Shown here: positions 470 through 64,000 of the stretch, piece after piece | How positions within the stretch are numbered: the stretch's first letter is position 1 | How the letters are laid out: each line of letters opens with the position of its first letter | Source of the DNA: Escherichia coli | GTDB taxonomy: Bacteria > Pseudomonadota > Gammaproteobacteria > Enterobacterales > Enterobacteriaceae | DNA: 64,000 bases | NCBI RefSeq assembly: GCF_965641715.1 | Contig: NZ_OZ282454.1 | Direction: 5' to 3' (one strand) | Notes under the pieces: generated by a model | The model's database searches: none | Seen by the model: the letters and a program-made list of their open reading frames with translations, nothing else | What the model was told of the DNA's origin: nothing | Program-made: the position numbers and the translations under genes

Positions 470-587
470 GTTAAACTCCGGTTATTATTTACATGAGAGT
501 ATTTATGTCTGTAATATTCGCGTTTGTGTGATATTAATCAGATCAACCTCATTATTTTGTATGGTTTTTATTACCGTTTTATATGAC

Positions 588-935: not shown

Positions 936-950
936 AAATCAAATCCGCGA

Positions 951-1947: not shown

Positions 1948-1970
1948 TTTCCCCGGTTATTTTCCCTACC

Positions 1971-4417: not shown

Positions 4418-4422
4418 TCACC

Positions 4423-9054: not shown

Positions 9055-9179
9055 ATGAGTATTCCTTAGTGCGTTTAAAAAAGGAAAATATCAGTCTGTG
9101 GCCGTGGATATATCACGCAGTGCCATTCCTGAAACCACAGCACAAATAAGAGATGGAGGCTTTTAACAGGAAACTAGGA

Positions 9180-9569
9180 TTAACGTTCCTTTACTGAATG
9201 AGCATCATTTAATGCCTGAATTTGTTTTTCGCGAATCTTATTGCGCTCATTTTCTCTTACCCGTTTCACCTCTGCCATTTCGTTTCTTTCTCTACACGCT
9301 GATGCAAGCTCTTTTGCCTTACCAAGACTTAAAGGTTCAGGCTGATAATCAGATGTGTCAGACTTAATAGCTTCCTTAAATGCTTCTGCTGCACAGGGGA
9401 TATCCTGTGTAATCTCTGTCAGTTGTTCTGGTGTTGCAGGTTGTTGCTCAAGGTAGTCATTGTAAAAAAGACCACATATCAACATAGCCATAACGCCAAC
9501 AAATATAAAAGCCAGAACAGATTCTAAATATATCGACTTCATTTCATTTTCCTTTGAAGCAGTAAGCAC
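9180..9569 (-). CDS. hypothetical membrane-anchored protein (cargo inside tra operon)
   Basis: 129 aa ORF with one N-terminal TM helix, charged C-terminus; AT-rich relative to flanking tra genes; no homolog recalled. Confidence 0.5.
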   Translation of the reverse strand: MLTASKENEMKSIYLESVLAFIFVGVMAMLICGLFYNDYLEQQPATPEQLTEITQDIPCAAEAFKEAIKSDTSDYQPEPLSLGKAKELASACRERNEMAEVKRVRENERNKIREKQIQALNDAHSVKER

Positions 9570-9785
9570 TCATTGCCCCCCATTCAGTGTATCCATCACG
9601 TTGTTCAAAGGTTTATTTGTTTTAACTTCAATACATTCCCCTGTATTTCCAAATCCCCTGCCTCCGTGTGATTCGATTGTCCGAAGAACCTGCACGCATA
9701 CGTCCGTATTTGGCATGGGTGTAATATTCCAGCTTCCGCCACCGTTAATATTTTTTATCAGCACAAGAAAAATAAAGGTATGCAT
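9570..9785 (-). CDS. hypothetical small protein (cargo inside tra operon)
   Basis: 71 aa ORF abutting 9180-9569 (stop/start adjacent); AT-rich. Confidence 0.35.
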   Translation of the reverse strand: MHTFIFLVLIKNINGGGSWNITPMPNTDVCVQVLRTIESHGGRGFGNTGECIEVKTNKPLNNVMDTLNGGQ

Positions 9786-9864
9786 TCTTTATTACCTCCG
9801 CTTGTATATTAATCACTGAATATCCCTTCAGTTAACTTATGAGGTCATAAAACACTGCAGATTC

Positions 9865-10338
9865 TCATTCGGATTTATTCCCTTCAGTAAACTTCCGAAT
9901 AGTATCCTGTTCACGCTGACGGGTGGCAGACTCCTGCATTGCATCCACTTTCTCCTGCCAGAGACGCCGGATATCCTTTTCATCCCGACCAGTCAGTTTT
10001 TTACCGGACAGCAGACGGTTAAGCAGTTCCTGTCTCGCATCCGGTACGTCTTCAGTCAGACGCATAAGCTGAACCAGGCTCTGACGGCTGAGGACCATGA
10101 GTGATTCCGGCAGGAGGGTGAAGAAGAAAATAAAAAAGCATACCGCACCACAGCAGGCAAGGACCGCAAACAGGATTTTCAGATATATACCATCAACGCC
10201 GAACGCAGCAATAATACAGGGAATCCATGCAATACACGCACAAAACGCCAGGATGTTATATATCCGGTTATGTCTGCAATATATCTGTTGATGTTCATCC
10301 AGAATAAAATCTATTTTTTCATTTTCTGATTTATGCAT
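9865..10338 (-). CDS. hypothetical two-TM membrane protein (cargo inside tra operon)
   Basis: ORF 9865-10377; likely start at internal Met (MHKSENEKIDF); Cys-rich hydrophobic hairpin then charged tail. Confidence 0.5.
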   Translation of the reverse strand: MHKSENEKIDFILDEHQQIYCRHNRIYNILAFCACIAWIPCIIAAFGVDGIYLKILFAVLACCGAVCFFIFFFTLLPESLMVLSRQSLVQLMRLTEDVPDARQELLNRLLSGKKLTGRDEKDIRRLWQEKVDAMQESATRQREQDTIRKFTEGNKSE

Positions 10339-10552
10339 AGTGTTTCCTCTGCCTTTCCTGATACGCCTGACATTCAACGCACAACGTCACACCGGGAAAT
10401 ATTTTCCGCCGGGCTTCCGGAATAGGATTTCCGCATGCTTCACAGAGATAAACAGGAATACTATGAACATTTATTTTCTGGCGTATCCGGTTTATTCCTG
10501 TCATGGTCAGTTGTTCTGTCACTGAATATGCTTCATCGGCTTCATCACTCAC
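10331..10552 (-). CDS. traR: TraR (DksA/TraR C4 zinc-finger family)
   Basis: 73 aa with CxxC...CxxC (CEACGNPIPEARRKIFPGVTLCVECQ). Confidence 0.9.
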   Translation of the reverse strand: MSDEADEAYSVTEQLTMTGINRIRQKINVHSIPVYLCEACGNPIPEARRKIFPGVTLCVECQAYQERQRKHYA

Positions 10553-10686
10553 GGAATATTCCTCCCGACATGTTCTGACACGCTACCGCCCATCCCTTTT
10601 CACGCACAGGGCACTCGTTTTACAGGCAGATTATGAATACAGAAAGCCCGCCGGCATTGCCGGCTGATATACAACTTCAGGGCCAG

Positions 10687-11202
10687 TTAATTAATGCGTG
10701 GTTTTCCCCACGCAGACGGTTTAATAACAAAAAACACGCTGGATGGCTGATGATAAACATCCTGATTATCAATATAAGGCGCTATCCATAATGCTGCCGT
10801 CTGCTCACCCGTTCTTAGCGGACGGGGAGGTGTTACCGGCGCAACTGAACTGACCGGAACAACCGTTTTCACTTCCCGGGCAGCCGTAAACAATGGACGT
10901 GGTGCCAGCAGTTTCTGCTCCGGAAGTGCTGTCACCGCTGGTCTGCTGCCGGACGGAGTGGTCGCGGTGACGGTCTGCACCGGCATTGTCCGGAAGTTCC
11001 CTTCAGCCAGGCGCGGCAGTGATGCCGCAACCGGCTTTGCTTCTGAGGACTGCTCCAGTTTTTTGGCCTTCTCATTGGCCTGCTCCATCGTCATACAGGT
11101 ATCGGATGTGGTGGCGTTACACTCAAATTCCGTATTTGTTCCAGCGCAGCCGGAAAGTAATAAGGTCCCCAGCAGAGGAATAAATAAAGAAATCTGTTTC
11201 AT
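10687..11202 (-). CDS. traV: TraV outer-membrane lipoprotein
   Basis: 171 aa; lipobox LLLSGC; operon position. Confidence 0.9.
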   Translation of the reverse strand: MKQISLFIPLLGTLLLSGCAGTNTEFECNATTSDTCMTMEQANEKAKKLEQSSEAKPVAASLPRLAEGNFRTMPVQTVTATTPSGSRPAVTALPEQKLLAPRPLFTAAREVKTVVPVSSVAPVTPPRPLRTGEQTAALWIAPYIDNQDVYHQPSSVFFVIKPSAWGKPRIN

Positions 11203-11450
11203 TGCCCTTCACCTTTTTTATTACTCCCCACAACAGCAGAAATTAACTCTGCTGTCAGATTTGTTTTCCCTGCACAGGGATGTCCGGAGACCACTGTATT
11301 TCCCGGAGAAGAAAATAAGCTCATCGACATTCCCTTCTTCATCACACCGACAGCAGCCATATTAAAATTGTGCGGCAATGATTCAGAACTGAACTCCTTC
11401 GGAGCAGGAAGAACTATTTTTGTGGTGCAGTTACTGAGAACAGCATGCAT
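11199..11450 (-). CDS. trbG: TrbG
   Basis: 83 aa from internal Met of ORF 11199-11567; length and position as in F; trbD location not resolved. Confidence 0.6.
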   Translation of the reverse strand: MHAVLSNCTTKIVLPAPKEFSSESLPHNFNMAAVGVMKKGMSMSLFSSPGNTVVSGHPCAGKTNLTAELISAVVGSNKKGEGQ

Positions 11451-11505
11451 AAAATCATCTGATACGTTTTTATCTGGCACAACGCGGGCTGTAATAACAT
11501 TAATA

Positions 11506-12096
11506 TTACGCATGTTCATTTTTATCTCCGTTGCTTCTGTTTGTTCGGTCATCAGGGAAATAAACATGGCATTTCCTGATTTTTCCCGGCAGGGAAGCGT
11601 CTTCCGTATAAACGTCCTTCAGATATTCATCTGCGGTTACCACCCGGATACATTTCATTTTTCCGGGCAGCACCGGATATTTCCCGGTGATCGCTGCCAG
11701 CGAGACATACATCAGTGCCAGTGTTGCCCATAATGCGGTGACCAGTTGCATCAGTGACCGGTCAGTCTCCCTGACATAATCTGCAGCATCAGCCGCGCGG
11801 TAATGGCAGATATCCTGTATTTCTGATCTGCCTGAAGAATCAGAGGAAGAAAACCAGCATTCACTGACCGGGAACTGTCCGGCAGGTGCTGTTTGTCTTA
11901 CGAAGTTAATCTCCTTAACCAGTAATTTCCCCGGCGTGGTGTTGTCCTTCCATAAAACAAACAGAGCCATCAGGGCCATTGTGGCCAGAGGCAGAATGAC
12001 GGTGTACTTCAGACACCAGAACAGTCCTCGCAGAACCCGGGCGACAACATACCGGGCGGCATGGCACGCCTGACGGGCCGACATATTATTTGCCAT
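11506..12096 (-). CDS. traP: TraP inner-membrane protein
   Basis: 196 aa as in F TraP; operon position. Confidence 0.85.
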   Translation of the reverse strand: MANNMSARQACHAARYVVARVLRGLFWCLKYTVILPLATMALMALFVLWKDNTTPGKLLVKEINFVRQTAPAGQFPVSECWFSSSDSSGRSEIQDICHYRAADAADYVRETDRSLMQLVTALWATLALMYVSLAAITGKYPVLPGKMKCIRVVTADEYLKDVYTEDASLPGKIRKCHVYFPDDRTNRSNGDKNEHA

Positions 12097-13513
12097 CGTT
12101 GCCTCCTCCCTGGCTGCCGGACATAAACTGCTGCGGATTCAGGTTGCCCAGCTGCTTCAGCATCTGGTCAGTATTAAAGCCGTTAAGATGACTTTCAGCT
12201 GATGGCGGAACAGGAACCGGACTTTCCGGATTATCTTCTTCCGCTCTGTTCTGCGTGCGCTCCAGCGCCATCTCTTCCACGGTTTTCAGCTGGAAGCCGT
12301 CCTGGAACACCACGGTCACTTCGTTGCCCGCACCAATCGGTATCACCGGGTGATACTGTTCGGCACGTTTGATGTAGTAGTCACTGAGCGTCTGTGCGGC
12401 TTTCGATGCGCCGCCACCGATACCCATTTTAAGGACATCGCCGGCCCCGTAAGCAGCAGTGGCACCCAGCCCGACAGCCGGCTGGGAAGCACGCTCCATT
12501 CCCTGACCGATACCGTCAACAAATCCCGCGCCCCATGCCCAGCCGAGGATTTTGCCGTTACGCATCACCACTTCGCCCTTAATACCGTTTTTACCCCGGA
12601 AGCTGACATGCCCCTTAATCGGCATATCAATGGTTTTGCCGTCCTTCAGGCAGCTGATATTGCGGGTACGTACAATGGCACGCTCACTGGAGACATCCCC
12701 CCAGGCTTCCAGACCCACAAAACATCCCTTTGCGTCATACGTTTTGCTGTTCGGCATTTCCACCAGGCCGATGATACGCAGCTGCATCGGCACCGTGGAT
12801 TCATTACCAGTAACAGAGGCATTGGCATCCGCCCCTTCAATCAGCATGGCTTTCGCAAAACTTCCTGACGGAATGTACGGCAGCGAGGGGCCCTGTTTTC
12901 CCTCATTACGGGTGAACACCTTACGCTGTATCCGGTTAGGCACCGGTACAGACTGGTACGTCACCTGCGGTGGTGGCGTGACACCATTCCCGGGATAAAA
13001 CGCCGTCGGCGGTGGAACAGCAACGCTGCCCTGCGGCGGGAAAGATACGGGTGTGTTTCCTGGCTGTGGTTCGCCTTCCGGGCCGGGCGGTGAGGCTGGC
13101 GTCTGCGGTACTGGCTCACCGGTCGCGGTGACAGGATTTGCACCCAGGGCTTTCACCTGCTCTGCCAGTGCAGCATTGTCCTGTCCCAGCTTTTCAATAC
13201 GACGCTGGTCATCACCGCGCTGTTTGTTCAGGACATCCAGCTCACGACGGATTTCCTCATACTGCTTCTGCATCTGTGCTGCCGTCACCTGCATCTCTGT
13301 GGTGGCATGCTGACGCACCTTGTCATCAAAGGTCGTATCCACCACACCGGTCATATCCGGCACAGGCTCCTGTTCAGCCACGGTTTCACCGTTACCGGAC
13401 ATGTCCACATCAGACAGATACAGTGCCCCACCAATCGCGGAGGCTGCACCGACAACCACAATCCCCAGCCACAGGTACTGCTTGCGTTTCACAATGGTAT
13501 TGATACTGGCCAT
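12086..13513 (-). CDS. traB: TraB (VirB10-like)
   Basis: 475 aa, N-terminal TM, Pro-rich linker, conserved C-terminal domain. Confidence 0.93.
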   Translation of the reverse strand: MASINTIVKRKQYLWLGIVVVGAASAIGGALYLSDVDMSGNGETVAEQEPVPDMTGVVDTTFDDKVRQHATTEMQVTAAQMQKQYEEIRRELDVLNKQRGDDQRRIEKLGQDNAALAEQVKALGANPVTATGEPVPQTPASPPGPEGEPQPGNTPVSFPPQGSVAVPPPTAFYPGNGVTPPPQVTYQSVPVPNRIQRKVFTRNEGKQGPSLPYIPSGSFAKAMLIEGADANASVTGNESTVPMQLRIIGLVEMPNSKTYDAKGCFVGLEAWGDVSSERAIVRTRNISCLKDGKTIDMPIKGHVSFRGKNGIKGEVVMRNGKILGWAWGAGFVDGIGQGMERASQPAVGLGATAAYGAGDVLKMGIGGGASKAAQTLSDYYIKRAEQYHPVIPIGAGNEVTVVFQDGFQLKTVEEMALERTQNRAEEDNPESPVPVPPSAESHLNGFNTDQMLKQLGNLNPQQFMSGSQGGGNDGK

Positions 13514-14241
13514 CAGTTGCCCTCCCCGTCACGGATGACATACACATCCATGCGCGCACCTGCCAGTAACTGGCTGGCAGGCTGGCTGAACATCACGGCA
13601 CGGGTTCCCGGCTGCCAGAAGTCACTTTCCCGGATATTCAGGGCAGACAGCGTTTTATTTTCCACGGCAAAGCGGATCATCTTCAGGTGATTCCCCGTCC
13701 ATACAGCATCTGCCACTGAAGACAGCCCCGCCGGGGTCTGCAGGGTTTCTTTTGTCACCGGGACCTGATACCAGCCTGCAGGTAATTTTCCGCCACGGAC
13801 GGCTTGGCTGATGGTCACAAGCAGGGATTCGTAAGGCGTGGACGTTTCCCACGCTCCGGCTTCTTCTCCGGTTCCGCGCAGGTCACTGACCAGCTGAATG
13901 GTACGCCCCGCGCCTTCACGGGGAACGGCCTGAATGGAAAGATTCAGACCACGTTCTGTTTCCAGAATGAACGTAAAGGGCTTTTTGTTGACGGTGGCCA
14001 CCACCACACCGCCGGAGGCGGTCTGCTCATTATTGGTCAGGGCACCATCCAGACTGTTCACGGCGATAATCCGGTCACCGGGAACGGTAAACAGATTCGG
14101 GCTGGTATTGCTGATGGCAATACTGGCCTGACCACCGTTCACCATTGGCACCACGGTGGGGGCCAGCGTACCGTTTGCGGCCATCACGCTGCAGGAAAAA
14201 AACAAGCTGCCGAATATTATTGCCGTATTATTTTTTCTCAT
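13513..14241 (-). CDS. traK: TraK (VirB9/secretin-like)
   Basis: 242 aa with signal peptide; operon position. Confidence 0.9.
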
Positions 14242-14794
14242 CGTCTGTTTCCCCGAAATTATCCAGCCAGGTCACCCCGTTTTCCCGCTTCAGAATAAGG
14301 ATGTAATGTTTGATATCAGTGAAAGGTTTTGAATCACCAATCCAGGTTTTAAGCACACCACGAATTTCCACACGGCCATACTGAGGCCAGACACGAACAC
14401 TGGTCTGGAAAAAGGCTGAGTTCACGTTATCGTTTTTAATACGCTTCGCTTCTTCAGCCAGAATAACTTTCATCTGGTTCTGTGCGCCCGGGCGGATATA
14501 TTGCAGAAGCGCCTGATGTGAGGCATCGACGGTTTCTGATGAAACATTCAGACGGAGGGCAATAAATGACAGCGCCATCTGCTGTAAATAAGAGGCGTCG
14601 GCACTGTTCTGTGACACGGCAAAGGGGGCATTAAATGCCATTGGCGTCACGGCAGTGCGTTGCTCATTCTGAAGACGGTAGTTATTCACCACCTGAATGA
14701 CGTTAACAGAGAGGCTGAGAACAATAAGCACTGACATAAATATAAAGGCGATGGCCATTACACGACTGGTACTTAAACGGGCACCGTGTTCCAT
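14228..14794 (-). CDS. traE: TraE pilus assembly protein
   Basis: 188 aa, single N-terminal TM; length matches F TraE. Confidence 0.9.
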
Positions 14795-14815
14795 ATAACA
14801 ATCCTGGTATCAGTT

Positions 14816-15127
14816 CTATTTAATCCACTGCCGGAAACACGAATCGGGAACATTATGAAAAATACCGCGCAGCAGGGCTGTTGGCATATACCAGTAAATC
14901 AGGTCTCGTAACCAGGAACTGCCCCGCCCTTTTTTCAGTTTTTTAATCCCGAAATAAACCAGAACCGCTGCACCAATACCGAACAGATATTTCGATGTTG
15001 TGATACCCCAGCCAATACAGATTGCTGCGGGGATCAGTTCATCCAGTGGCAGGCCAAACCAGCGGCTCTGGTTGGTCAGTGTTTCCGGGAAACGATATTT
15101 CTTAAGTTTATTCTCGTCTCCCGACAT
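14816..15127 (-). CDS. traL: TraL pilus assembly protein
   Basis: small membrane protein directly downstream of traA; true start may be internal. Confidence 0.8.
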
Positions 15128-15141
15128 CGTTTTATTTCCTG

Positions 15142-15501
15142 TCAGAGGCCAACGACGGCCATACCCACAGCAATAAATACAGAGATGATGGCAAAACCGG
15201 CCAGGAACTTGACGTTTTTGGTCATCATGTACATGACCGCACCGACCAGAACTTCAGCCAAAACGACCCATTTAACAACACTGGAGTCCTTACCGAAGGT
15301 CGCCTTAACCGTGGTGTTACCGCTTGCCATCAGGTCCTGGCCCTGTGCTGCCATTGCCAGTTGCGGGAAGAACATCATCAGAACAGCAGCCGGGATCACA
15401 GCGCGAGCCAGGCGAAGCATATTCAGACGAGTGAATTTAGAAAAAAACGACTTCTTTTTGACGGGCGCAGAAGCACCCTGAACACTTAAAACAGCATTCA
15501 T
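15142..15501 (-). CDS. traA: TraA propilin (F-pilin precursor), group II / ColB2-like N-terminus
   Basis: 119 aa; leader ...FFPQLAMA then mature [21 protein letters not shown]...; 2 aa shorter than recalled F (AGSSGQDL). Confidence 0.92.
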
Positions 15502-15533
15502 AAGTTACCTCAATTTCGGATAAATGAATAAAA

Positions 15534-15935
15534 CTAGAGTGTATTAAATGTTATATCTTCCTCTTTATCTGCCTCCCTGAATATCTCCGAGTTATAAAAA
15601 TCAGGAAACTTGATCAAATGATCAATAACTCTGTCTGCAGCCTCATCTGTTTTACACCATCCACTACGATTTTTGGCTGCAATAAGTAGCTGGTTAGTTT
15701 CATCATCCAGACGCATTGTCAGATACTTAACCAGCGACTTACCATAGATATTCCCTGCCCTGTTAAACTTTGGATAGCGGTGAAGATGATCTTTAAGTCT
15801 TATTACTGCCTCAAACGATCGACTTCTTCCGCTTCTGTTACTTGCCTCAATTAATAGACTTTCCACATCTACAGGTAATTTTAGTTTTACCATCTTACCT
15901 GTTGCAGAACGTGTACCAAATCTTTTCAATAACAC
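15534..15935 (-). CDS. traY: TraY (ribbon-helix-helix oriT-binding protein)
   Basis: near-identical to recalled F TraY (KRFGTRSATGKMVKLKLPVDVESLLIEASNRSGRSRSFEAVIRLKDHL); probable non-ATG start. Confidence 0.88.
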   Translation of the reverse strand: MLLKRFGTRSATGKMVKLKLPVDVESLLIEASNRSGRSRSFEAVIRLKDHLHRYPKFNRAGNIYGKSLVKYLTMRLDDETNQLLIAAKNRSGWCKTDEAADRVIDHLIKFPDFYNSEIFREADKEEDITFNTL

Positions 15936-16027
15936 CTCCCGCTGTTTATCTTCTGGTTACCACTTATGTTTGCAGAATAATCAGAAAAGGTAAATAGACG
16001 GAAAGTCTATATTTTATTAACACTTTA

Positions 16028-16717
16028 TTAACGCGTATTTATGATACACATAGCCTTCTCGTACAAATAATGAATAAACTTTTTATTGTAGAGTAAGATG
16101 ATTAACTCATCTTTATTAGAAACAGAGAAGTAGTCGCATATCAGAGATGCGTGTTTCTTTGATGTGGAGATGGATATGTTTAATATTCTTGCTATAGCAT
16201 TATGACTGATTCCGGTGCTATATAAGTAAAAGACATCATTTACATATGATGATACAGAAGAATCATCACTCATTCTTCTGATTATATTTCTGATATCATC
16301 ACTGACAATCGTTTTTTGATTATAACTGTCTTTATGACGAACATGAGCAGCATCATAAAATTGCCACAGAATGATATTTCTGTGTCCATTAAGAAATGAC
16401 TGGACAGATATTGTCCAGAATCTGTTCTGAATAAAAACATCCTCTACAAGATTAAGATGCGTATGCTCATTCCTGTATGCTTCCATCTCTGTGACAGAGA
16501 TCAATTCACAAAAATCTCTCTGCGACAGAAGCCATTTTTCAGCACTTTGATCTTGTGTAAGAAATGACTCATGAAACAGCGTATTGCAAAAAATAAATTT
16601 TCCAGTTTCGTCCCTGATACAGGCTGGATTTGGATAATCCTGAATAACTGCCGTCAGATTTTCCAGCAGATCTATTTGACGAGCATGTTTTTGTTGAATA
16701 CGATCCATCGGATACAT
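16028..16717 (-). CDS. traJ: TraJ transfer activator
   Basis: start at internal Met (MYPMDRIQQKHARQIDLLENL) with GAGGAGG RBS upstream; 229 aa as in F. Confidence 0.9.
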   Translation of the reverse strand: MYPMDRIQQKHARQIDLLENLTAVIQDYPNPACIRDETGKFIFCNTLFHESFLTQDQSAEKWLLSQRDFCELISVTEMEAYRNEHTHLNLVEDVFIQNRFWTISVQSFLNGHRNIILWQFYDAAHVRHKDSYNQKTIVSDDIRNIIRRMSDDSSVSSYVNDVFYLYSTGISHNAIARILNISISTSKKHASLICDYFSVSNKDELIILLYNKKFIHYLYEKAMCIINTR

Positions 16718-16797
16718 AGGAACCTCCTCACAAAGGATTCTATGGACAGTCGATGCAGGGAGGAGAGAACTCCCTGCATCGGCGATTTTCAAATTCA
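16715..16797 (+). ncRNA. finP: FinP antisense RNA (approximate ends)
   Basis: antisense to traJ leader/RBS; perfect hairpin GATGCAGGGAG...CTCCCTGCATC followed by GATTTT. Confidence 0.5.
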
Positions 16798-16903
16798 AAT
16801 TTTAACGTGGCATTAACCACGTAATTAATATACTAATTATCTTTCGTACTGTCACCCTTTTAAATCATAAAAACTCTGATGTTTGAACGAAGTCAAATTT
16901 CTT

Positions 16904-17287
16904 TTATTCATCATCATTTTTTGGAAAAAATCGTTCCATCTCAGATGATACCTTCTCCCTGATATCTTCAACCATATTGGCATATTCAAACTTTGGATTT
17001 CCGGAGACATGAGGACTGAGAGACTCAATACCCAAAATTTTCGCTACTGATGATTGTGTTTTTACAACGCATTCAAGAAGCAATTTATTAAACTCAGTCT
17101 GATTAAATGCAGACTCTTTACGCTCCATCTGAGCCTCATGTACACGAAGCCCCAGTTCAAGAAGCATTGACGCTGTTGCTGAAAAACTGACATCTTTTTC
17201 CCTTGCCCCTTCCTGTCGACGCTTCTCAATAATCGCATTTATTTTTTCATAGGCATCATTGCTGATATACAGGTTCACCTTAGCCAT
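16904..17287 (-). CDS. traM: TraM relaxosome accessory protein
   Basis: 127 aa identical over its length to recalled F TraM (MAKVNLYISNDAYEKINAIIEKRRQEGAREKD...). Confidence 0.95.
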   Translation of the reverse strand: MAKVNLYISNDAYEKINAIIEKRRQEGAREKDVSFSATASMLLELGLRVHEAQMERKESAFNQTEFNKLLLECVVKTQSSVAKILGIESLSPHVSGNPKFEYANMVEDIREKVSSEMERFFPKNDDE

Positions 17288-17289
17288 TA

Positions 17290-17640
17290 GAGATTACCTT
17301 TTTTGAACATAAAATAAAGTTAATTTCGAAACACTAAAATTCATAATGCAAACAGGGACGCACCGCTAGCAGCGCCCCTAGCGGTATCCTATAAAAAAAC
17401 ACACCGCGCCGCTAGCAGCACCCCTAATATAAAATAATGTTTTTTATAAAAATAGTCAGTCCCCCCCCTACAAAGCGGTGTCGGCGCGTTGTTGTAGCCG
17501 CGCCGACACCGCTTTTTTAAATATCATAAAGAGAGTAAGAGAAACTAATTTTTCATAACTCTCTATTTATAAAGAAAAATCAGCAAAAACTTGTTTTTGC
17601 GTGGGGTGTGGTGCTTTTGGTGGTGAGAACCACCAACTAG
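17290..17640 (+). promoter_or_regulatory. oriT: oriT region with F-type nic motif; inferred nic between 17609 and 17610
   Basis: TTTGCGTGGGGTGT/GGTGCTTTTGGTGGTGAGAACCACC at 17597-17635; GCTAGCAGC-containing direct repeats and a long inverted repeat (17479-17516) upstream; lies between traM and geneX. Confidence 0.8.
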
Positions 17641-17700
17641 TTGAGCCTTATTGTGGAGTAGGTTAAATTATTTCCGGATAATGTCACCAGAGGTGAAAAA

Positions 17701-18210
17701 ATGAAAAAGTGGATGTTAGCAATCTGCCTGATGTTTATAAATGGAATCTGCGAAGCCGCCGATTGCTTTGATCTTGCAGGTCTGGATTACAAAATAGACC
17801 CGGATTTACTGAGAGCGATATCATGGAAAGAATCCCGTTACCGGGTTAATGCCATTGGTATTAATCCGGTAACGGGATATGGCAGCGGACTGATGCAGGT
17901 AGACTCCCAGCATTTTAACGAACTGGCCCGCTACGGAATTAAGCCAGAACATCTGACAACAGATCCCTGCATGAACATTTATACCGGTGCCTATTATCTG
18001 GCAATAGCATTTAAAAAATGGGGCGTATCCTGGGAAGCCGTTGGTGCATACAATGCCGGATTCAAAAAGAGTGAACGCCAGAACCGGAGGCGTCTTGCTT
18101 ATGCATCAGACGTTTACCGGATTTATACCGGGATAAAGAGCAGTAAAGGCATCCGGGTTCCGACCACGAAGAAATCACTCCCCCAAATTAACAGTGTGCA
18201 GAACAATTAA
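17701..18210 (+). CDS. lytic transglycosylase GeneX/Orf169 (P19 family)
   Basis: 169 aa with signal peptide and SLT-like motifs (ISWKESRY...GLMQV...AYNAG); first gene beyond oriT. Confidence 0.88.
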
Positions 18211-18468
18211 TATTGTATACATTGTCAAATACCGGTTATGCCGCGACAGCGGCATGGAAGGCCACACACAAAAATATCATATGAGTGATAATGCTGACTG
18301 GCCGAAGCCCCGCAAAGCGGGAACCCATCTTATATATATCCGGTAACTACGCAGCCTCCTGCCAGACCATTTTTCGCGGGCACAATATTTACAGACTACC
18401 GAAAAGCCAGTTGATGAAATTGAGGTATATCAGACGACACAGCAATGCCGCAGGATGATAATATAAGT

Positions 18469-18492
18469 AAAGCCCCGAAAAATTTTTCGGGG
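18469..18492. terminator. palindromic hairpin, possible bidirectional terminator
   Basis: GCCCCGAAAAATTTTTCGGGGC followed by T-rich run; between convergent geneX and ORF 18666-19328. Confidence 0.4.
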
Positions 18493-18665
18493 CTTTACTT
18501 ATATTATCATGACTTCCACTCCCTGAACTGTTCGGCAATCATCCATAATGCTTTGTTGATTCGGATATCACCGTCAATGCCTGTAATTGCTCTTGTTCTG
18601 GTATTTTTACCGGAGGCACTTCGCCCCGATAATCCACCTTTTATCATATTCTCCTGAACCCGCTG

Positions 18666-19328
18666 CTAGGTTGTCCAGAGATCGTTCTGTTTATCCTCCC
18701 AACGGCGGGGAGTAATTATTTGTTCAGGCGTCACTGGCGTTTTATTTTCATCTTCATACCTGACCATCAATGCAGCTCTGCCAAATAAATATTGTTCGTC
18801 ACTGTTAAGATGTATCCCTTTCATTGTCTCCATATTTTCAGTGACTTTATCAAAGACACCGGGCACTTCATACGCTCCCTCAATAACCTGCCCGACAATA
18901 TCACCTTTATGTGGAACGCGGATTTCGCCAAAATTATTCCCGCACACCAGGCCATTTGTGTAGACAAAACGAAAAATTCCTGGGATCATCTGATAACTGG
19001 ATGAACCATCATGTGAATTAAGCAGGGTAATTTCAGGAACTTCTTTCCCGTTAATATGCCCTTCCCTGCGAAGACGTAACATATGTTTACTGTATTCGCG
19101 GCGTCCCAAATCACGAACCCGACTCTGACAGGCAAAGAACGGCTGGAAACCTTCATCACGTAACTTATTGATGATATTGATGGTTGGGATATATGTATAA
19201 CGCTCACTCCGGGATTCATGTTTATCACCAGAAAAAACAGATGGAACAAACTGCATTAATTCGTCATCCGTTAACGGGCGCTCACGGCGAATAGAATTAT
19301 ATCGACCAAAACGGGAAGCTAATCGCAT
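18666..19328 (-). CDS. hypothetical leading-region protein (possibly DUF932-like)
   Basis: 220 aa ORF; family assignment from memory only. Confidence 0.55.
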   Translation of the reverse strand: MRLASRFGRYNSIRRERPLTDDELMQFVPSVFSGDKHESRSERYTYIPTINIINKLRDEGFQPFFACQSRVRDLGRREYSKHMLRLRREGHINGKEVPEITLLNSHDGSSSYQMIPGIFRFVYTNGLVCGNNFGEIRVPHKGDIVGQVIEGAYEVPGVFDKVTENMETMKGIHLNSDEQYLFGRAALMVRYEDENKTPVTPEQIITPRRWEDKQNDLWTT

Positions 19329-19438
19329 AACAGTAACTCCTTTATGAAGGCATAAAATTAATAAAAATTTTTTCGCTTAATATCATCCCCCCTCGGTTAT
19401 CGTTAACAAAAAGACAACAATTCCGAGGGGAAGGACCA

Positions 19439-19735
19439 TCAAATCAGGTCAGTTCGGGACTGACCAACCTGCCGAGTGAAAAGCAGTAACAGCGCGATCA
19501 ACTCATCAGCGTTTTTTCTGACAAGAGGAGTATGATTCTCCAGGCTATCCAGTAAGTCATGCAGCTCATTATTGACCTGGTGGAGCACCTTAAAGAGTGC
19601 ACCAGAATCCCGGCAGCTCTGATATGCAAGGTTTGCCTGAACTGCACGATTCTGCATAATCCCGATTTGTGCGATTGCGTCTTTCTGCTGATCGCCTGTT
19701 GGCTGATAAGTGGTGTTAAAAGAAAATGCGCTCAT
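19439..19735 (-). CDS. hypothetical leading-region protein
   Basis: 98 aa ORF immediately downstream (in transcription sense) of repeat copy A. Confidence 0.45.
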   Translation of the reverse strand: MSAFSFNTTYQPTGDQQKDAIAQIGIMQNRAVQANLAYQSCRDSGALFKVLHQVNNELHDLLDSLENHTPLVRKNADELIALLLLFTRQVGQSRTDLI

Positions 19736-19749
19736 AATTCCTCCTGTAT

Positions 19750-20100
19750 CTGATGTTTTCAGCCCCCATCATCTGTTGAGTTTCGGGACCCGCCGCAACG
19801 ACGAAGAGCGCGTGCGCGAAACGGCGTTGCCCCTTACATCCCGGCGGCTTTTTGCCGGGATGCAAGGAGCGCAGGCCACGGCGCGACAGAGGCGGCGCGA
19901 CCGGAACGGTCGCTGCAAGCCCGGGGTTTTCACGCATCGGACCGTAGCGACAGCCCGAAACCGCGCCAGCGGGTTCGGCGGAGACTGGCAGGTGCGCCAG
20001 CAGCTGCCTGTCGGAGTCGGGCCTGACGACCGGATGCCGCCAGGCAGCCGGGAGCCGAAGGTGCGCCCGGCAGACAGGACAACACTGCTGTAGTCAGAAT
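19750..20100. repeat. Frpo/ssi-like leading-region repeat, copy A (shorter; lacks the 5' block)
   Basis: about 330 bp near-identical to 25431-25770 and similar to 28750-28890. Confidence 0.7.
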
Positions 20101-20385: not shown

Positions 20386-20547
20386 CTACTTACCGCCGGA
20401 TTCGTAAGCCATGCTTGCCGTAACCTCCCTGTATCCGTCCTTCAGCCGTATTTCGCACAGACGATTCCGGGTCAGGAGTGTGAATATCAACAACGTGCAG
20501 CACACGATTAATACGCACCAGATAAGGGCGTTTCCCGGTAGTTTCAT
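20386..20547 (-). CDS. hok: Hok/Gef family toxin (FlmA/Hok-like)
   Basis: hand translation [53 protein letters not shown] (53 aa); not in supplied ORF track (under 60 aa). Confidence 0.85.
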
Positions 20548-20605
20548 GGTTTACTCCTCCTTGCAATTTGCACGGTAAGAGGCCATACTGACGTGGACTA
20601 GACAT
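20390..20605 (-). CDS. mok: Mok-like overlapping reading frame
   Basis: 71 aa ORF overlapping hok in a different frame, as in hok/mok/sok loci. Confidence 0.55.
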
Positions 20606-21064
20606 GCAAAGGCCTCGTGGGTTAATGAAAATTAACTACGGGGCTTTTGTCCTTCTGCCACACGACAGGATAACAAACCACCTTCACGTCATGAGGCAGA
20701 AAGCCTCAAGCGCCGGGCACATCATAGCCCATATACCTGCACGCTGACCACATTCACTTTCCCTGAAAATAATCCGGTCGTTCAGCCAGTTCACGGGCAA
20801 TCAGTTCATCCGCAAACAGTGGTGCATGCCTGTTGATACGTTTCTCCAGATTCCGCCGTCGTACCACAGCCTTACGTTCTTCGCTCCAGCGGCGCACCTA
20901 GCGGTCAGAAATAAAATCCAGACAGACCGCATACCCTGCACCGGCAACCCAGCGTGACATAACGGATGCCGGTGCAGGCTGCCCCGCCTCCACCACTTCT
21001 GAAACCAGTTCATGCTCGCCAGGACAGGGAGAAGGCAGTTTCCAGCGCAATGAGTAACGCCACT

Positions 21065-27996: not shown

Positions 27997-28227
27997 TCAG
28001 TTAAAAGCGCGTTTCAGTTCGAGTGTGCGGAGCACCTGCCCGAAAGCCGTGTTTTTCATGGCGGGGATGTGTACACCACGCCCCCGGTGAAAACTCCGGG
28101 CTATGTGTCGCCCGAAGGCTTTCAGCACGGGGGCAATTTCCGGCGCGGGGATGTCTTCGCGTCTGAAACGGGGATGACGGCGGGGCTTTACAGCCGCTGC
28201 GGAAGGTGAAACAATACTTAAAGTCAT
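27997..28227 (-). CDS. hypothetical small protein
   Basis: 76 aa basic ORF first downstream of repeat copy C. Confidence 0.4.
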   Translation of the reverse strand: MTLSIVSPSAAAVKPRRHPRFRREDIPAPEIAPVLKAFGRHIARSFHRGRGVHIPAMKNTAFGQVLRTLELKRAFN

Positions 28228-28454
28228 AATTTAGCCTCTTATGACGGTTGAATGGAGCCGCAAAAACTGTTCGTGCAGTCTCTGCGGCGTGGATTAAGCA
28301 GGTCCCTGACCTGCTTTTTTCATATCTGCATCTGACGTTCTCCGGTGTTTTCCTCCTTCTGTTCCTGCGTTTTCATTACCTGCCAGCCGGATGACTGGCA
28401 GAATACATAAATGCGTATTGCCGGAGCCTGAAATAAATCCTGATTTTTAAAGAA

Positions 28455-38769: not shown

Positions 38770-39016
38770 ATTTATCAGCCGATTTACACGCCATAGGTGA
38801 ATCATGTTGAACGACTATGGCTGTTACTTCACAACACAATAACGCGTAATCATCAGTGCTGCTCAATGTGGCAACTGTTGAAAGATGTTCGCCATTTTAT
38901 AGAAACCGTCAGCCCATTCTCCGGAGGCAAACATGGGCTGGCGAAAGTGTAGTGGTATTAGGCACAGCTACTGAGTACGGATTTAACTTCGTATTGGATT
39001 TTATTGCCTCTGTTTA

Positions 39017-39718
39017 TTATAAGTACATCTGTAATTTATAAATCTCACTAAGCTTTACAGACGGATAATAATAACCTTGCCCCCCCCACAGACTTACATC
39101 TCTAATTTTATCCAGAATATATTGTGATTCAATTCCCTCAGCTATTACTTTTGAACAATGAGTTGAAATGCGCTTTATAATTTCACTGAAGTATTCTTTA
39201 TTAAGCGTTCTATAAAGAAAGTCTTTATCAAGCTTAACCGCCCCAACATCTTGTAATTGAGATATATTTATTTTACAGTTGTCAGCACCAAAATCATCGA
39301 CCCATATATGATTTGTAATATTTAGTAGCTTATTAACAATAATTCTACTATTTTCATGAAAATACGGAAATGTTTCTGATATTTCAAGAGCAATGAAGTC
39401 ATTCTCAATTATAGTTTTCTGAAGTTCCTTACAGTTAAAGATAAAAATGCAAGTATCATAATCAATATTAATTGAGCAAATTAAATCATTTTTGATAAAA
39501 AATGATTTTTGTTCAGCTATGGATTTTATTTGTTGCTGTAGTATATTTATCTTCATTGCTGAAGATAACCTCAGAAATGTATGTTGTGTTGATAATTGCT
39601 CGCCGCTTTGTGTATAAAAGCGACTTAGTACTTCAACAGCAACTAACTTGTTGTTTTTTATATCAACAATTGGCTCAACAATAAAATAAACACCCAAAAT
39701 ACAGCTCCAGTTTATCAT
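39017..39718 (-). CDS. EAL-domain protein (c-di-GMP phosphodiesterase-like, possibly degenerate)
   Basis: 233 aa, AT-rich; EVL in place of EAL, DDFGADN, KLDKDFL, EGIES. Confidence 0.65.
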   Translation of the reverse strand: MINWSCILGVYFIVEPIVDIKNNKLVAVEVLSRFYTQSGEQLSTQHTFLRLSSAMKINILQQQIKSIAEQKSFFIKNDLICSINIDYDTCIFIFNCKELQKTIIENDFIALEISETFPYFHENSRIIVNKLLNITNHIWVDDFGADNCKINISQLQDVGAVKLDKDFLYRTLNKEYFSEIIKRISTHCSKVIAEGIESQYILDKIRDVSLWGGQGYYYPSVKLSEIYKLQMYL

Positions 39719-40776
39719 ATGCTCTCATGAAATACAGTCGACTGTATTTCATGAGTATGTGGTAGTGTTTGCTACGATTAGCATCACCATCTAAAGTGAT
39801 AATGCGTGATAAATAAAATATAAACCACATAAAAAAAACATCAATCATCACAATATAAATTAAATATTTTTAATTTAAAAATGATGTAATGACTATAGAT
39901 GACATTTGCTCACGACGCACTTATATAGCAAAATAAATTTGCTGAGTCACATATGTTACCCTTCTTTTTAGATCTAACCCTTGCTGGCTAAGGATATATA
40001 TTTAAAAACCGCACTTTTTTTAGTGCTCAGTTTTTAAATACTGAGTGGATATCCTGTCGCTCTATTTTTGAAGATTAATTGATCTTATTATCCCCACATC
40101 AAGAATAAAAAGCAATAACAAAACTGAACATTATGTGAACTCCCAAGGGTTTTGCCCCTCTTGTCCGATACGGCATGATGTAACATATCGAGAAAATACT
40201 CTATTCTTATCTGTACAAAACTTTGAGTGAAGAGCGGGAAATCACGGAGAAGTAGTTATCAAAATATAATACTGGGGGAATACTAACCGAACCATTATTT
40301 AGGCAGGATAACAAAAAATGCATGGGACGATACTTGACGAACAGGCATGGAGGGGTTCCTGTGTAATTGATTCCACAAATTATTAGATCAATAAGCTCTA
40401 TGCCTACCCCCCCCATTACAGGGATTCCTCAGCACAGCTGTAAGTTCGGACTATGGGTAAAAAAGATACCCGTCAGGTAACGAGCTAACGCATTAATCAT
40501 CAGATGAGCGAAGTATCGTTTATTGTAAGTATGACCGCCACCAGAATGAATATTCAGCCTGTAACGCATTCTGGCGAATAGTCGGCTTCGATACAGTAAA
40601 CGACTCATTTGATAACGATCTTTATCAATAACTCAATTTTATGAGGTAAAAAAAACAGCACCGTATCTGCTATTACAGAATGAAGAACATTAAATAAACC
40701 TGAGTTATTATCCAACGCGGAAAACCGCCAGTGCTGTAAAATTACCAATAAAACAACCAGCAAGTCACGATTCTTT

Positions 40777-41163
40777 TTATTTCTTATATTTTGACAACAT
40801 TAAAAAATTAATTATTAGCTTATTATGCGCCCCCTCTCTATCGACGTAGCACCCTCTGCACCAGAACTCCCTGTTCCTGTATTTGAATTTCAAATCCCCA
40901 AACTGCTCGTAAAGCATCCGACTGCTTTTCCCTTTCAGATATCCCATAAAGCCGGATACGCTCATTTTGGGCGGGCTCTCCACAAGCATATGGATATGAT
41001 CTACGCAGCATACAGTTTCCATAATCCGTACACTTTTCCACTCACACAGCTTTCTCAAAATACTGCCTATTGCTCTACGCCTCTCTCTGTAGAATACCTG
41101 TCTTCGGTATATTGGCGCAAAAACGATGTGATATTTACAGTTCCATTGGGTGTGCGTCCCCAT
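40777..41163 (-). CDS. IS200/IS605-family TnpA-like (Y1 transposase), possibly degenerate
   Basis: WNCKYHIVFAPIYRRQ...CCVDHIHMLVESPPKMSVSGFMGYLKGKSS...; C-terminus diverges. Confidence 0.6.
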   Translation of the reverse strand: MGTHTQWNCKYHIVFAPIYRRQVFYRERRRAIGSILRKLCEWKSVRIMETVCCVDHIHMLVESPPKMSVSGFMGYLKGKSSRMLYEQFGDLKFKYRNREFWCRGCYVDREGAHNKLIINFLMLSKYKK

Positions 41164-42567
41164 TGCCCCCCCCCCCTTCCTTTTGATTTCTTGTCTGACA
41201 CTTGCAGTTGCCAGACCGCAGGGTGTTTTAACAAATCAAAAGTTTTTTTCTGTGCACAAAAAAAAACCGCCATGCCAGGCGGTTTGAAGCATAAGAATAC
41301 ACATTTTATACTTTGAGGTGTCGGGTGCCTCCCGAAATACCCGCCCAAAGACAGATATTGTGATTCCCCCGCTAAACCACTATATAAACCACCCTCGCAC
41401 TGAGGAACACCTCTGTAGTGTTATTCACAACACAGAAATGCCACATCACCGACACTACCAGAAACAGGAGAATTCCACCAATAATGCAGCATTCCTGTAT
41501 TGTGAAATATTAATACTGCAACTATACCTGACTTGGTATCATAGTAAGATACACTTGTTATCCCGTCTGTCGACATGAAATAAAAAAGCATTACTACATC
41601 TTTACAACTTTTAAGGTTGATACTACCGATGGTTCATATTAAATCAAAAATATAATTAGTTATAATGTGTTAACATATGTATATATTTGTATCAGACATG
41701 TGCATTTTATTCCTCCTTCTACTGCTCTCGCATTGGATTTTGCAAAAAACACCATGAACATGAACCATTTGGGATTGCACTCATTCAATTCTCGCAATGA
41801 CAGAAGAGTCACTTCGGGTTAACCGGTATATTGAAATGCCATCAGAGAATATATTTTAAAAAAGAGATAGGCTTGAATATATGATTAACACAAGTTCTAA
41901 TTTTGAGATGTTCTTTGCTATGCTGGTACTCTGTTAGCGCCCCCTCAGGGAAAAATCGTTTTTATTCGGCAGAACATGGAGTCCGGCATCCACGTGTTCC
42001 ATGTGGCTCAGGTTTATGGTATTTGCCCCCCCCCCGTTGTTTAAATATCAGGAAGGAAATCCTATTGCTGTTGCCGCAGGTGAAGATGTCGTTCCTTCTT
42101 CAACTCTATAAAACAAATAAAAGAGTTACAGCCCATGATGAGCAAAAAAATGGCTAGTGAGATCTTCTCAAAGAATCAGTGGAGTACGCTTTGTCGCAAA
42201 AATGAATAGCACCGCCCTAGTTGCCAACGGACATTGAATAAACCCTAGTAAGCCGTATTCTGGGCGTGTAGCGCACACAACAAGTATAACGAATGAAAAT
42301 CTTGGTAAGAAGACAAATAAATGGTTCGTAAATGCAAAGCGCGTTTATAGAATAAAAGTATGCGAGCGTACGCCTATAGTCACGTTACTTTATAGAAAAG
42401 GTATCTGGGCAGAAAAAATCTGAACCAGATTTGAGACGGTACATAGATTTGTGTAATTGCCTGATTTTGATATGTTCAATCCAGCATCAAATGAAGGTTA
42501 ATTTATGACGAAAAACAGTTACAGGCTCTGGCTAACTAACTGGCCAAAAACCTCAATCCCCTTGAAG

Positions 42568-43300
<733 letters not shown>

Positions 43301-43549
43301 TCATGTTGGCGCGCGAATTGCGTCAGATTAAAAAAAAGGATAACGTCAGACCTCATCTTTTCAGAAAAAGATATCTTTTAGTCGCCACGACACAAGAAAA
43401 AAAACTATTATTATTAAGAATGTGTTTTGATTGTTACTATGGGTAAATAGTATTATCCAGAAAATTACCAACATATATTAAACATTTTTTTAAGATTTTA
43501 TTATATTATTTTCTGGTTATCTTGGATATTACATTATATAGGAGGGATT

Positions 43550-55113: not shown

Positions 55114-55614
55114 CACCGTTATATGTATTAGTCGCGACTTGATCTGACACATGGCCTTGAAAGGTTGAGAGTTACCGGTTTTGATATGGGTGTCGAATCC
55201 TTATACAAAACACGAGGTAACTCTCATGCTTCATACTACCAATCCCGTCATCAAACACAAAGCCGGTTTGCTCAATCTGGCTGAAGAACTCAGCAATGTA
55301 TCAAAAGCCTGTAAAATCATGGGCGTTTCGCGTGATACATTTTATCGCTATCGCGAACTGGCCGATGAAGGCGGTGTGGATGCGCTGGTTAATCGTAGTC
55401 GCCGCGCCCCTAACCTTAAGAACCGTACCGATGAGCTAACTGAGCAGGCCGTTGTCGATTATGCCGTCGCTTTCCCGGCGCACGGTCAGCACCGGACCAG
55501 CAACGAGCTGCGCAAACAGGGCGTTTTTATCTCAGGAAGTGGTGTCCGTTCTGTCTGGCTGCGCCACAATCTTGAAAACTTCAAAAAGCGTCTGAAAGCA
55601 CTGGAAGAAAAAGT
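55114..55614 (+). mobile_element. IS481-family element, copy 3, 3'-truncated by IS66
   Basis: identical to first 500 bp of copy 1; transposase ORF 55181-55618 cut after ...KALEEKV. Confidence 0.75.
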
Positions 55615-55651
55615 GTAAGCGTACAGCGAGGGCCGTATTGACGGGGATGTG

Positions 55652-59255: not shown

Positions 59256-60188
59256 TCAGGCGCTAAACGCTTTTTCTTTATCAAAAGGAACACCTGCATA
59301 CGCCAGTTCGCTCAGCAGCTTGCGTTTCCATCCACCATGTTCATCAAGCTCGGTATAAAGTACGCCTGCGAGATCGGAAGGTATTTCGATGTCACCCTTC
59401 TTGAGTACCAGTACTTTCCCGCGACCAAGTTTCCCCGCGAAATATCCGAGTTCATACAAGACATTTTGACGTGCACGCAGTCGCGTGCTTTCAGATGCCA
59501 AGGCATTCCCGCTATCGTCAGGCGTCATCAGCACGATGGCAAAGCTGACATCTCCTGACTCCGCTTCAAACTTCTCGATAACCGTCCTTGAGCCGTCAGG
59601 GCGTTCAGAAAGTATGATCTCCTCAAGCCCTACACGAGAGATAAAACGGGCAACAGATTGAAGGGCATCATTATCATGGCCATGAACAATAAAAACTTTT
59701 CGGGAAACCGGACGTAGCACTGCTGGCTCAGGAGCGAACTGATTTTCCACATACAACTGGTAATCACGGACGAATGGGACAAGTAATGATGAGGTAAACT
59801 TGCGGACAGATTCAATAACCCTGCGGTCGTAGAAAAATGTATGCCAGAAATTAAATGAAAAATTGTTATCGATCGCCATTTTCTGTATCAGCAGCAACTT
59901 CAAGCCCAAAATATCAGCTGGTTCTTCAGGCCATTGCAGCACAGCGGAACCAGCCATGCTGGATTCAGTATCTCCACTCCTGGCCAGAAAGGCATCAAGC
60001 TCAATATTGCGGGTCAGGCGTTCATTAACTGCCTGCAAGTTATCTGAGTTCAATAGCCGGGCCAGTTGTTTAAGAGGTTGCTGATAGTTCTGAACGTCAG
60101 CGCGCTGAAGATCGAATACGCAATTTTTAAGTGACTGAAAGATATCAATCGCCATCCTGTCCGCTCTCCTGTCTTTGTTGTTCTGCAC
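59256..60188 (-). CDS. protein with C-terminal TIR-like nucleotide-binding domain (Cap12/pfam10137-like) and unknown N-terminal domain
   Basis: 310 aa; residues about 165-300: KVFIVHGHD...IEKFEAE...FAIVLMTPDD...RARQNVLYELGYF.GKLGRGKV..L.KG...PSDL.GV.YTEL; alternative start Met at 60155. Confidence 0.6.
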   Translation of the reverse strand: MQNNKDRRADRMAIDIFQSLKNCVFDLQRADVQNYQQPLKQLARLLNSDNLQAVNERLTRNIELDAFLARSGDTESSMAGSAVLQWPEEPADILGLKLLLIQKMAIDNNFSFNFWHTFFYDRRVIESVRKFTSSLLVPFVRDYQLYVENQFAPEPAVLRPVSRKVFIVHGHDNDALQSVARFISRVGLEEIILSERPDGSRTVIEKFEAESGDVSFAIVLMTPDDSGNALASESTRLRARQNVLYELGYFAGKLGRGKVLVLKKGDIEIPSDLAGVLYTELDEHGGWKRKLLSELAYAGVPFDKEKAFSA

Positions 60189-60435
60189 TGTCCAGAATCT
60201 GTTGGCGCAGATTTTCTTTCATGTGTTCGATTAATGGACTGACCATAGGATTAGTGGCATAACCAGAAGCGCGTTCGTCCACCATGGAGTAGGCTTCCTG
60301 AATTGCGTTCTCAATGCTGCTAGGATCGTTAGCATCAAAACGAACATCATAACTTCCGTTTAAGGCCTCCGTTGCTCTCTCAACCTCTTTTAGCTGTTTC
60401 TGCATTTTGTCTAAACCTGTGATTTTGACGCCCAT
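60145..60435 (-). CDS. hypothetical small acidic protein, upstream partner of TIR-like gene
   Basis: 96 aa ORF overlapping the start of 59256-60188. Confidence 0.45.
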   Translation of the reverse strand: MGVKITGLDKMQKQLKEVERATEALNGSYDVRFDANDPSSIENAIQEAYSMVDERASGYATNPMVSPLIEHMKENLRQQILDSAEQQRQESGQDGD

Positions 60436-61510: not shown

Positions 61511-61620
61511 AAAATTTCCTTGCACATCCATTTTTTTGCGAATATTATTATTCCTGCTGAATATGATTCAATATCGCACGCTACTCATCCATCCCAGGAT
61601 AATAAGTACATAGGTTGAAG

Positions 61621-61650
61621 TTTCACCCCCCCCACTACGGGGGTGTTTTT
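61621..61650 (+). terminator. rho-independent terminator
   Basis: CACCCCCCCCACTACGGGGGTG followed by TTTTTTTT. Confidence 0.45.
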
Positions 61651-63161: not shown

Positions 63162-64000
63162 GGCTTGATATAAACCAAGCAGGCAAGGGATCTGGTTAAC
63201 ACCTTTCCTTCCATAAAGTGTTTGAAGATCCAGAGATACGTATCCACAAGCTCCAGCCCTGTACTCAGTGTCCCCGACTGGAAGACCTGCGGTTCAGCTG
63301 GTATTTCCGTTACATCCATGACCGGTGTCTGCGCAGCAGTGCCTGTCATCAGGATATTCATGGAGCCAGTCTGTATGCGCCTCTGGCGTTGAAACAAACA
63401 TATGAAGTGTATTTCGGATATGACTGTACGCTCAGGAAGTACGGCAGATTCCGTCAAAAATTACCTGTAAAGACAGACTTCAGAAAAAACGGTGCTCGCC
63501 GCAGACCGGTGACCGGGCGAAGCCCGCGAACCGGCGAGGAAGCGCAATGGATCTGTAATCACAGTGAGCAGGTACGCCCTGAAGCCTTCATAATCGGTAG
63601 TGTATGCTGTTTTTCCGGAATGATTTATCCACATATCCAGAGGCCCGATCCAGTAAATAGATCCATGAATGATCAATAAAGGATCCATTAAAGATCCCCA
63701 TATCGCTACAAACCTTGTCACTCATGGGCCGGGACCACGATCACATAAGCTGTGGCATGTTACTGATAAACTGTAATATGCTAATGATAAGCTGTATTCA
63801 GTAATGCATATACTGAAGTAAGTTAATGACATAAACTATGGTCAGTACGCCAGACTCTGTTGTTAAATACAGACTGCAGGTTTTTCTTCAGTCAGTTAGC
63901 GGGGCTCTGACACACGATTTGCTGTTTATTCTTTTACTGTCCACAGGCAGGAGGCTTTCTGGAAAACGAAAATTCAGACATCAAAAAACTGTTCGGCGAG

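Follow-up and report, generated by a model that had tools for sequence, protein, structure and literature searches.

Direct repeats at the end of an Escherichia coli plasmid sequence are very probably the origin-proximal iterons of a RepFIB replicon

Introduction

What are the short direct repeats that lie close to the 3´ end of a plasmid sequence from Escherichia coli (NCBI RefSeq assembly GCF_965641715.1, contig NZ_OZ282454.1), and to which genetic element do they belong? The stretch analysed here, referred to as the window, comprises 64,000 nucleotides of one strand. A sequence-only reading had noticed two imperfect 11-bp repeats in an AT-rich part of it and suggested that these could be iterons or DnaA-box-like elements of a replication or partition region extending past the window end; a comparison with the iterons of RepFIB and RepFIA was proposed.

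We conclude, with a probability of about 0.97, that the repeats are the iterons on the origin side of a RepFIB (IncFIB) replicon, carried by a conjugative E. coli plasmid of the F type. The RepFIB iteron array is itself already known, the replicon having been dissected since 1989 and re-examined in 2025 (Lloyd et al., NAR 2025; PMC11983097). Binding of Rep to the iterons is the stated basis of the model in the recent study, according to which Rep expression is weak and autoregulated, and the upstream iterons (BCDD´D´´) are tied to the origin and the downstream ones, from E onwards, to control (Lloyd et al., 2025). For P307 and pO157, binding of Rep to the repeats and autonomy of the replicon have been reported (Spiers, 1993, cited by Lloyd et al., 2025).

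Results

Five repeats in a 21-bp register

Both 11-mers are present exactly as read, TGATAAACTGT at 63764-63774 and TGATAAGCTGT at 63785-63795, 21 bp apart from start to start with 10 bp between them, and the surrounding sequence is AT-rich as described (G+C 0.32 in 63750-63830 vs. 0.49 window-wide). The count of two fell short: the noted copies are real, but they are copies 2 and 3 of an array of five repeats on the same strand with the core ATAARCTGT, spaced from core to core by 21, 21, 21, and 23 bp (Table 1). With both strands considered, ATAARCTGT has four matches in the window against 0.83 expected, a number reached in 0 of 100 shuffles, and three of the four (63745, 63766, and 63787) lie on one strand exactly 21 bp apart. 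Degenerate copies continue in register at 63808 (ATATACTGA) and 63831 (ATAAACTAT), and alignment shows that the core of the former is retained in distant FIB relatives. Elsewhere in the window, a lone ATAAGCTGT at 52336 (-) has no neighbouring copies and fits the chance expectation of 0.83.

The array was also scored with a weight matrix trained only on the five repeats found 3´ of rep in a near-identical plasmid, i.e., on sequence outside the window. The ranks in Table 1 are those obtained among 127,960 window positions. Upstream iteron 5 is identical in 16 of 18 bases to the first downstream iteron, ACATAAACTGTAGTCAGT. The array has the properties of an iteron-type origin, namely at least three helically phased direct repeats, each of about 17-22 bp, whose cores are better kept than the spacers. 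The repeat names B, C, D, D´, and D´´ of the literature are placed on these coordinates only tentatively. Further to the right, FIB relatives from Klebsiella and Salmonella have an intact core, ATAAACTGA or ATAAGCTGA, where the window has 63864-63880, and this segment might conceivably be a sixth iteron that has decayed.

Table 1. Features of the replication origin and the start of rep in the window (positions are those of the 64,000-nucleotide stretch; rank refers to the weight matrix).
Feature	Position	Strand	Remarks
DnaA box, perfect TTATCCACA	63625..63633	+	Left edge of the conserved origin
Five GATC (Dam) sites	63647..63696	.	Starts at 63647, 63660, 63671, 63682, 63693
Upstream iteron 1	63740..63760	+	Core ATAAGCTGT at 63745-63753; rank 3; tentatively repeat B
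Upstream iteron 2	63761..63781	+	Core ATAAACTGT at 63766-63774; rank 44; first repeat of the sequence-only reading; tentatively C
Upstream iteron 3	63782..63802	+	Core ATAAGCTGT at 63787-63795; rank 1; second repeat of the sequence-only reading; tentatively D
Upstream iteron 4	63803..63825	+	Degenerate core ATATACTGA at 63808-63816; rank 8; tentatively D´
Upstream iteron 5	63826..63846	+	ACATAAACTATGGTCAGT, core at 63831-63839; rank 2; tentatively D´´
Possible sixth, decayed iteron TAAATACAGACTGCAGG	63864..63880	+	Out of the 21-bp phase
Shine-Dalgarno AGGAGG of rep	63949..63954	+	pO157-type functional allele
rep, first 14 codons, CTG start	63959..64000	+	Translation LENENSDIKKLFGE; gene runs past the window end

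A CTG-started rep gene next to the array

The sequence-only reading had made its proposal depend on further repeat copies and on a rep gene downstream, and both were found. Three more repeats lie within the window and six lie past rep in near-identical plasmids, and rep itself starts at 63959 and continues past the window end. A Shine-Dalgarno sequence and a CTG-started rep of the FIB type, with 14 codons inside the window, are thus part of the locus. Near-identical plasmids have an annotated GTG in the same frame, whose first base corresponds to the one following position 64000.

Three independent lines back the CTG as the start. First, the 14 Rep residues encoded in the window align with the N-terminus of P1 RepA. 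Second, the approximately 70% identical relatives from Klebsiella and Salmonella retain the CTG as well as the peptide DIKKLFxEVDK by way of synonymous changes. Third, the CTG start of rep was shown by N-terminal sequencing and mutagenesis, and it sits 14 codons 5´ of the GTG annotated in most GenBank records (Lloyd et al., 2025). Between the upstream stop codon and the CTG at 63959 there is no ATG, GTG, or TTG in frame, and gene callers therefore pick the later GTG. Past position 64000, the sequence is expected to continue rep with GTGGATAAGTCG and onwards.

The body of rep and the downstream iterons lie beyond the window and are known from near-identical plasmids. In one of these, CP088797 (99.8% identical over 63400-64000), rep comprises 339 codons counted from the CTG. 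The full protein matches Pfam Rep3_N with 43.3 bits (cut-off 22.4) and Rep3_C with 18.3 bits, just under the cut-off of 21.1, and the initiator encoded by this plasmid belongs to the Pfam Rep_3 family. It is 46% identical to P1 RepA (E = 5e-94). A sequence search of solved structures with Rep returned nothing meaningful (best E-value 0.8). Phage-plasmids, too, encode homologues of Rep: those of SSU5 and Cyrano are 63-65% identical to it, those of Klebsiella phage-plasmids about 52%, and that of SJ46 47%; the replicon type is thus common to conjugative plasmids and phage-plasmids.

Six further iterons, one direct and five inverted, are found 3´ of rep in CP088797, the direct one (ACATAAACTGTAGTCAGT) straight after the rep stop codon. 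The first two of these downstream iterons make up a roughly 16-nt inverted repeat, ATAAACTGTAGTCAGT ... ACTGACTACAGCTTAT, right after the stop codon (5580-5630 in that plasmid), which could double as an RNA hairpin ending the rep transcript. A simple scan of 63300-64000 found no sigma-70 promoter or terminator; going by P1, the rep promoter should overlap the iterons nearest to rep.

Identity with RepFIB and the state of this copy

A search of a plasmid collection with 63400-64000 matched 3,173 records, mostly from E. coli and at 90-100% identity, 2,646 of them over nearly the full length. The precise allele is rare, with identity of at least 99% in only 8 of the 3,173 matching records. Two near-identical plasmids were inspected; each is typed IncFIB and has a 'RepB family plasmid replication initiator' annotated from the base after the window end. 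In a four-way alignment with F, pO157, and pO26_1, the origin at 63600-64000 has a mean column identity of 96%, which bears out the earlier suggestion of iterons of a replication region that runs past the window, as well as the proposed comparison with RepFIB. The pO157 gene is annotated 'RepFIB (P307 replicon)'. Identity to reference RepFIB origins is found together with an upstream direct-repeat array beside rep. RepFIB of P307, pO157, and F is the same element as that in the window, with five upstream iterons, DnaA box, Shine-Dalgarno sequence, and CTG start in common, and the near-identical plasmids carry the matching rep gene and downstream iterons. The differences from the reference RepFIB are only allelic, with substitutions mostly in the iteron spacers, e.g., at 63776-63783 in the comparison with F.

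An alternative that accepts the iterons as genuine is that they belong to a remnant or silent FIB origin, a copy that does not drive the replication of this plasmid. F-type plasmids often carry several replicons, the FIB of F is partly defective, an intact but inactive RepFIB has been cited for pCG86, and the part of the plasmid outside the window could hold another replicon. The ribosome-binding site speaks to this question. It is AGGAGG in the window and in pO157, AGAAGG (weak) in F, and TGGAGG in the P307 type, and the F-FIB defect was mapped to one base of this site (Lloyd et al., 2025). Because the window carries the functional pO157-type allele and not the crippling one of F, its RepFIB copy looks functional as judged from the sequence. 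In addition, the CTG start, the DnaA box, the five GATCs, and the five iterons are all intact, and the closest plasmids carry a full-length rep. We therefore regard a silent origin as improbable. A tblastn search of the 64 kb for homologues of RepE, FII RepA (C-terminal fragment as query), and P1 RepA gave no match, which also tells against a silent copy.

The conserved left part of the origin

Conservation was followed in an alignment of five FIB-type origins, i.e., the window, pO26_1 (91% identical), and three of the approximately 70% identical origins, from Klebsiella, Salmonella, and another E. coli plasmid. The DnaA box is invariant in 9 of 9 columns, the more distant origins included, and similarity to the distant relatives starts exactly at its first base, 63625. 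A DnaA site is also drawn in the FIB replicon by Lloyd et al. (2025; legend to Fig. 3). All 20 bases of the GATC cluster are invariant, compared with 13 of the 30 positions between the sites, and the corresponding figures are 38/45 for the iteron cores, 21/50 for the iteron spacers, and 27/81 for 63845-63925. The Klebsiella and Salmonella relatives thus keep the DnaA box, the five GATCs, the iteron cores, and the Shine-Dalgarno sequence with the CTG, while the spacers drift. That the motif columns are kept and the spacers vary argues for selection on the motifs rather than on the whole stretch.

The five GATC sites are spaced by 13, 11, 11, and 11 bp, mostly have the form (A)GATCC, and are separated from the iterons by a 40-bp spacer; a sixth GATC at 63739 abuts upstream iteron 1. 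This is the sole site in the window with at least four GATC in 51 bp, in a sequence where GATC is under-represented (130 found vs. about 250 expected).

Could the repeats themselves be DnaA boxes, or DnaA-box-like sites bound by host DnaA, as the sequence-only reading had allowed? They sit in an origin that uses a DnaA box, and the reverse strand of each repeat holds TTATC, the first five bases of the box. However, the best reverse-strand match to TTATCCACA within the repeats is 6 of 9, and nothing within one mismatch of the box is present in 63740-63850. The genuine, conserved box is found 112 bp leftward of the repeats, and the repeat core recurs six times 3´ of rep, an arrangement typical of iterons. 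On these grounds, the DnaA-box reading was abandoned as extremely unlikely, and the repeats are taken to be iterons in what follows.

DnaA boxes are also seen outside the origin. At one mismatch or less, TTATCCACA occurs 30 times in the window compared with 14.9 expected, and 30 was reached in 0 of 100 shuffles. Perfect boxes are located at 49851 (-), 62376 (+), and 63625 (+). Facing the second of these, about 1.25 kb to the left of the origin, is a box with one mismatch at 62390 (-). A 60-nt patch of 74% G+C (63490-63550) lies a short way to the left of the origin, outside the part common to the distant FIB relatives.

Plasmid context

A partition (centromere-like) site for a ParB/SopB-type protein, the other suggestion made from the sequence, deserves hardly any credence: centromeres of low-copy plasmids are also arrays of short repeats, and a ParB/RepB/Spo0J-family gene is annotated in a related plasmid under the match to window 1-20000, but relatives have a hypothetical ORF and the Rep initiator gene beside the repeats, followed by a tyrosine recombinase (integrase), with no parA/parB pair annotated adjoining, the region is the FIB origin mapped by experiment (Lloyd et al., 2025), and P1 parS is a separate site, located beyond parB and across repA and incA from the origin iterons.

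The iterons of RepFIB, as we understand them, are found in a plasmid whose best matches to the whole window form a mosaic. Window 1-20000 matches F-type tra genes. The best matches to about 39000-55615 are pig E. coli plasmids with an AIDA-I autotransporter adhesin, its heptosyltransferase, and several IS elements. In records with an F-like backbone from pifC to FIB, the match sets in only at about 55,610-55,615, and this points to a mosaic joint there. Within the backbone part, a gene at 59256-60188 (-) encodes a protein of 310 aa with a TIR domain of the CAP12/Pycsar-effector type (PF10137, E = 3e-37), and a small ORF at 60145-60435 (-) lies directly upstream of this gene and overlaps it. 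In F and in a related plasmid, pifC and a gene for a KAP-family NTPase adjoin this pair. We take the KAP-family NTPase beside pifC to be pifA. The TIR pair may, together with pifC and the NTPase, form a small defence island in the F backbone.

Rfam matches include the small RNA UptR, which scores 111 bits against a gathering score of 100 at 61556-61647 (+), some 2 kb upstream of the FIB origin. The other matches are FinP with the traJ 5´ UTR, sok, AS-pc01, and STnc490, at 16711-16822, 20545-20715, 28222-28319, and 41180-41284. At or near the repeats, no Rfam RNA family was found.

The position of the window end recurs in other records. The base equivalent to 64000 is the end of the record in 14 of the 20 best matches and in 14 of 32 evenly sampled close matches. 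It appears that such records were rotated so that the mis-annotated rep GTG comes first, and as a consequence of this rotation the true CTG-started ORF and its Shine-Dalgarno sequence land at the opposite end of the linearised record.

Discussion

The organization of the origin has a close parallel in the plasmid replicon of phage P1 (oriR/incC - repA - incA). The order there is a DnaA site, five Dam sites, five iterons 21-22 bp apart with PrepA inside, repA, and the incA iterons, and the window has the same succession of DnaA box, five GATCs, five iterons, and the gene for a RepA homologue. The P1 Dam motifs are AGATCCA and AGATCCC, and the FIB GATCs match them in order and motif. Based on the shared order of parts and the 46% identity of the initiators, RepFIB belongs to the P1 oriR type. 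Several features set the two apart. The P1 iteron, GATGTGTGCTGGAGGGAAA, is unrelated to the FIB iteron, ACATAAACTGTAGTCAGT; P1 has two tandem DnaA boxes and FIB has one; the second iteron set comprises nine incA iterons in P1 and six downstream iterons in FIB; repA starts with ATG and rep of FIB with CTG; and the second set is flanked by parAB-parS in P1 and by a tyrosine recombinase in FIB.

The RepFIA replicon of F (ori2/incB - repE - incC), the other candidate for comparison, resembles FIB in having one or more DnaA boxes, an AT-rich stretch, origin iterons that serve autoregulation, an initiator of the Rep_3 family, and downstream iterons engaged in handcuffing. It is only a remote relative of FIB, with a marginal match between RepE and the FIB Rep (E = 0.06, pairwise BLASTP). 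RepFIA has four origin iterons, made up of a 19-bp sequence that is different from that of FIB, and we know of no GATC cluster in its origin.

These comparisons, together with published work on FIB, suggest how the origin may operate. Rep monomers would bind the five 21-bp-phased iterons at 63740-63846 and, at two helical turns per repeat, all iterons would be on one face of the DNA. Host DnaA would bind the box at 63625; acting together, Rep and DnaA would open the intervening DNA, where the GATC cluster lies, and bring in the replisome of the host. From the same origin iterons, Rep would also repress its own weak expression, the low level of which would be set by the CTG start codon. Finally, Rep-mediated pairing (handcuffing) of the origin with the downstream iterons would limit the copy number and give rise to IncFIB incompatibility. 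The autoregulation and pairing steps are supported for FIB by the work of Lloyd et al. (2025), in which a pO157-FIB plasmid is cured by the downstream iterons on their own but not by the upstream ones, and whose model has Rep weakly expressed and under its own control. From P1 oriR the model proposed here borrows the opening at the GATC region, the dependence on Dam, and the place of the rep promoter.

By the same analogy, the GATC cluster would be the part of the origin that opens and senses methylation. For P1, Abeles and Austin are said to have found in 1987 that replication needs Dam-methylated GATC sites. It is conceivable, at somewhat less than even odds, that the five conserved GATCs make the initiation of IncFIB replication Dam-dependent and open to sequestration by SeqA, as in P1, and that the rare spacer and iteron allele of this plasmid in addition shifts its cross-reactivity in incompatibility, given that displacement is weakened where the ori region has diverged (Lloyd et al., 2025). 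A literature search found no test of Dam/SeqA control for RepFIB; such control has been shown for P1.

In conclusion, the window is the tail of an F-type plasmid record with a functional-looking FIB origin. The locus also has a bearing on annotation. Counted from its true CTG start, rep has its first 42 bases inside the window, and the combination of GTG annotation and rotation splits the gene across the junction of the record. Knowing where the origin and control iterons lie is useful in replicon typing and when plasmid-curing cassettes are designed.
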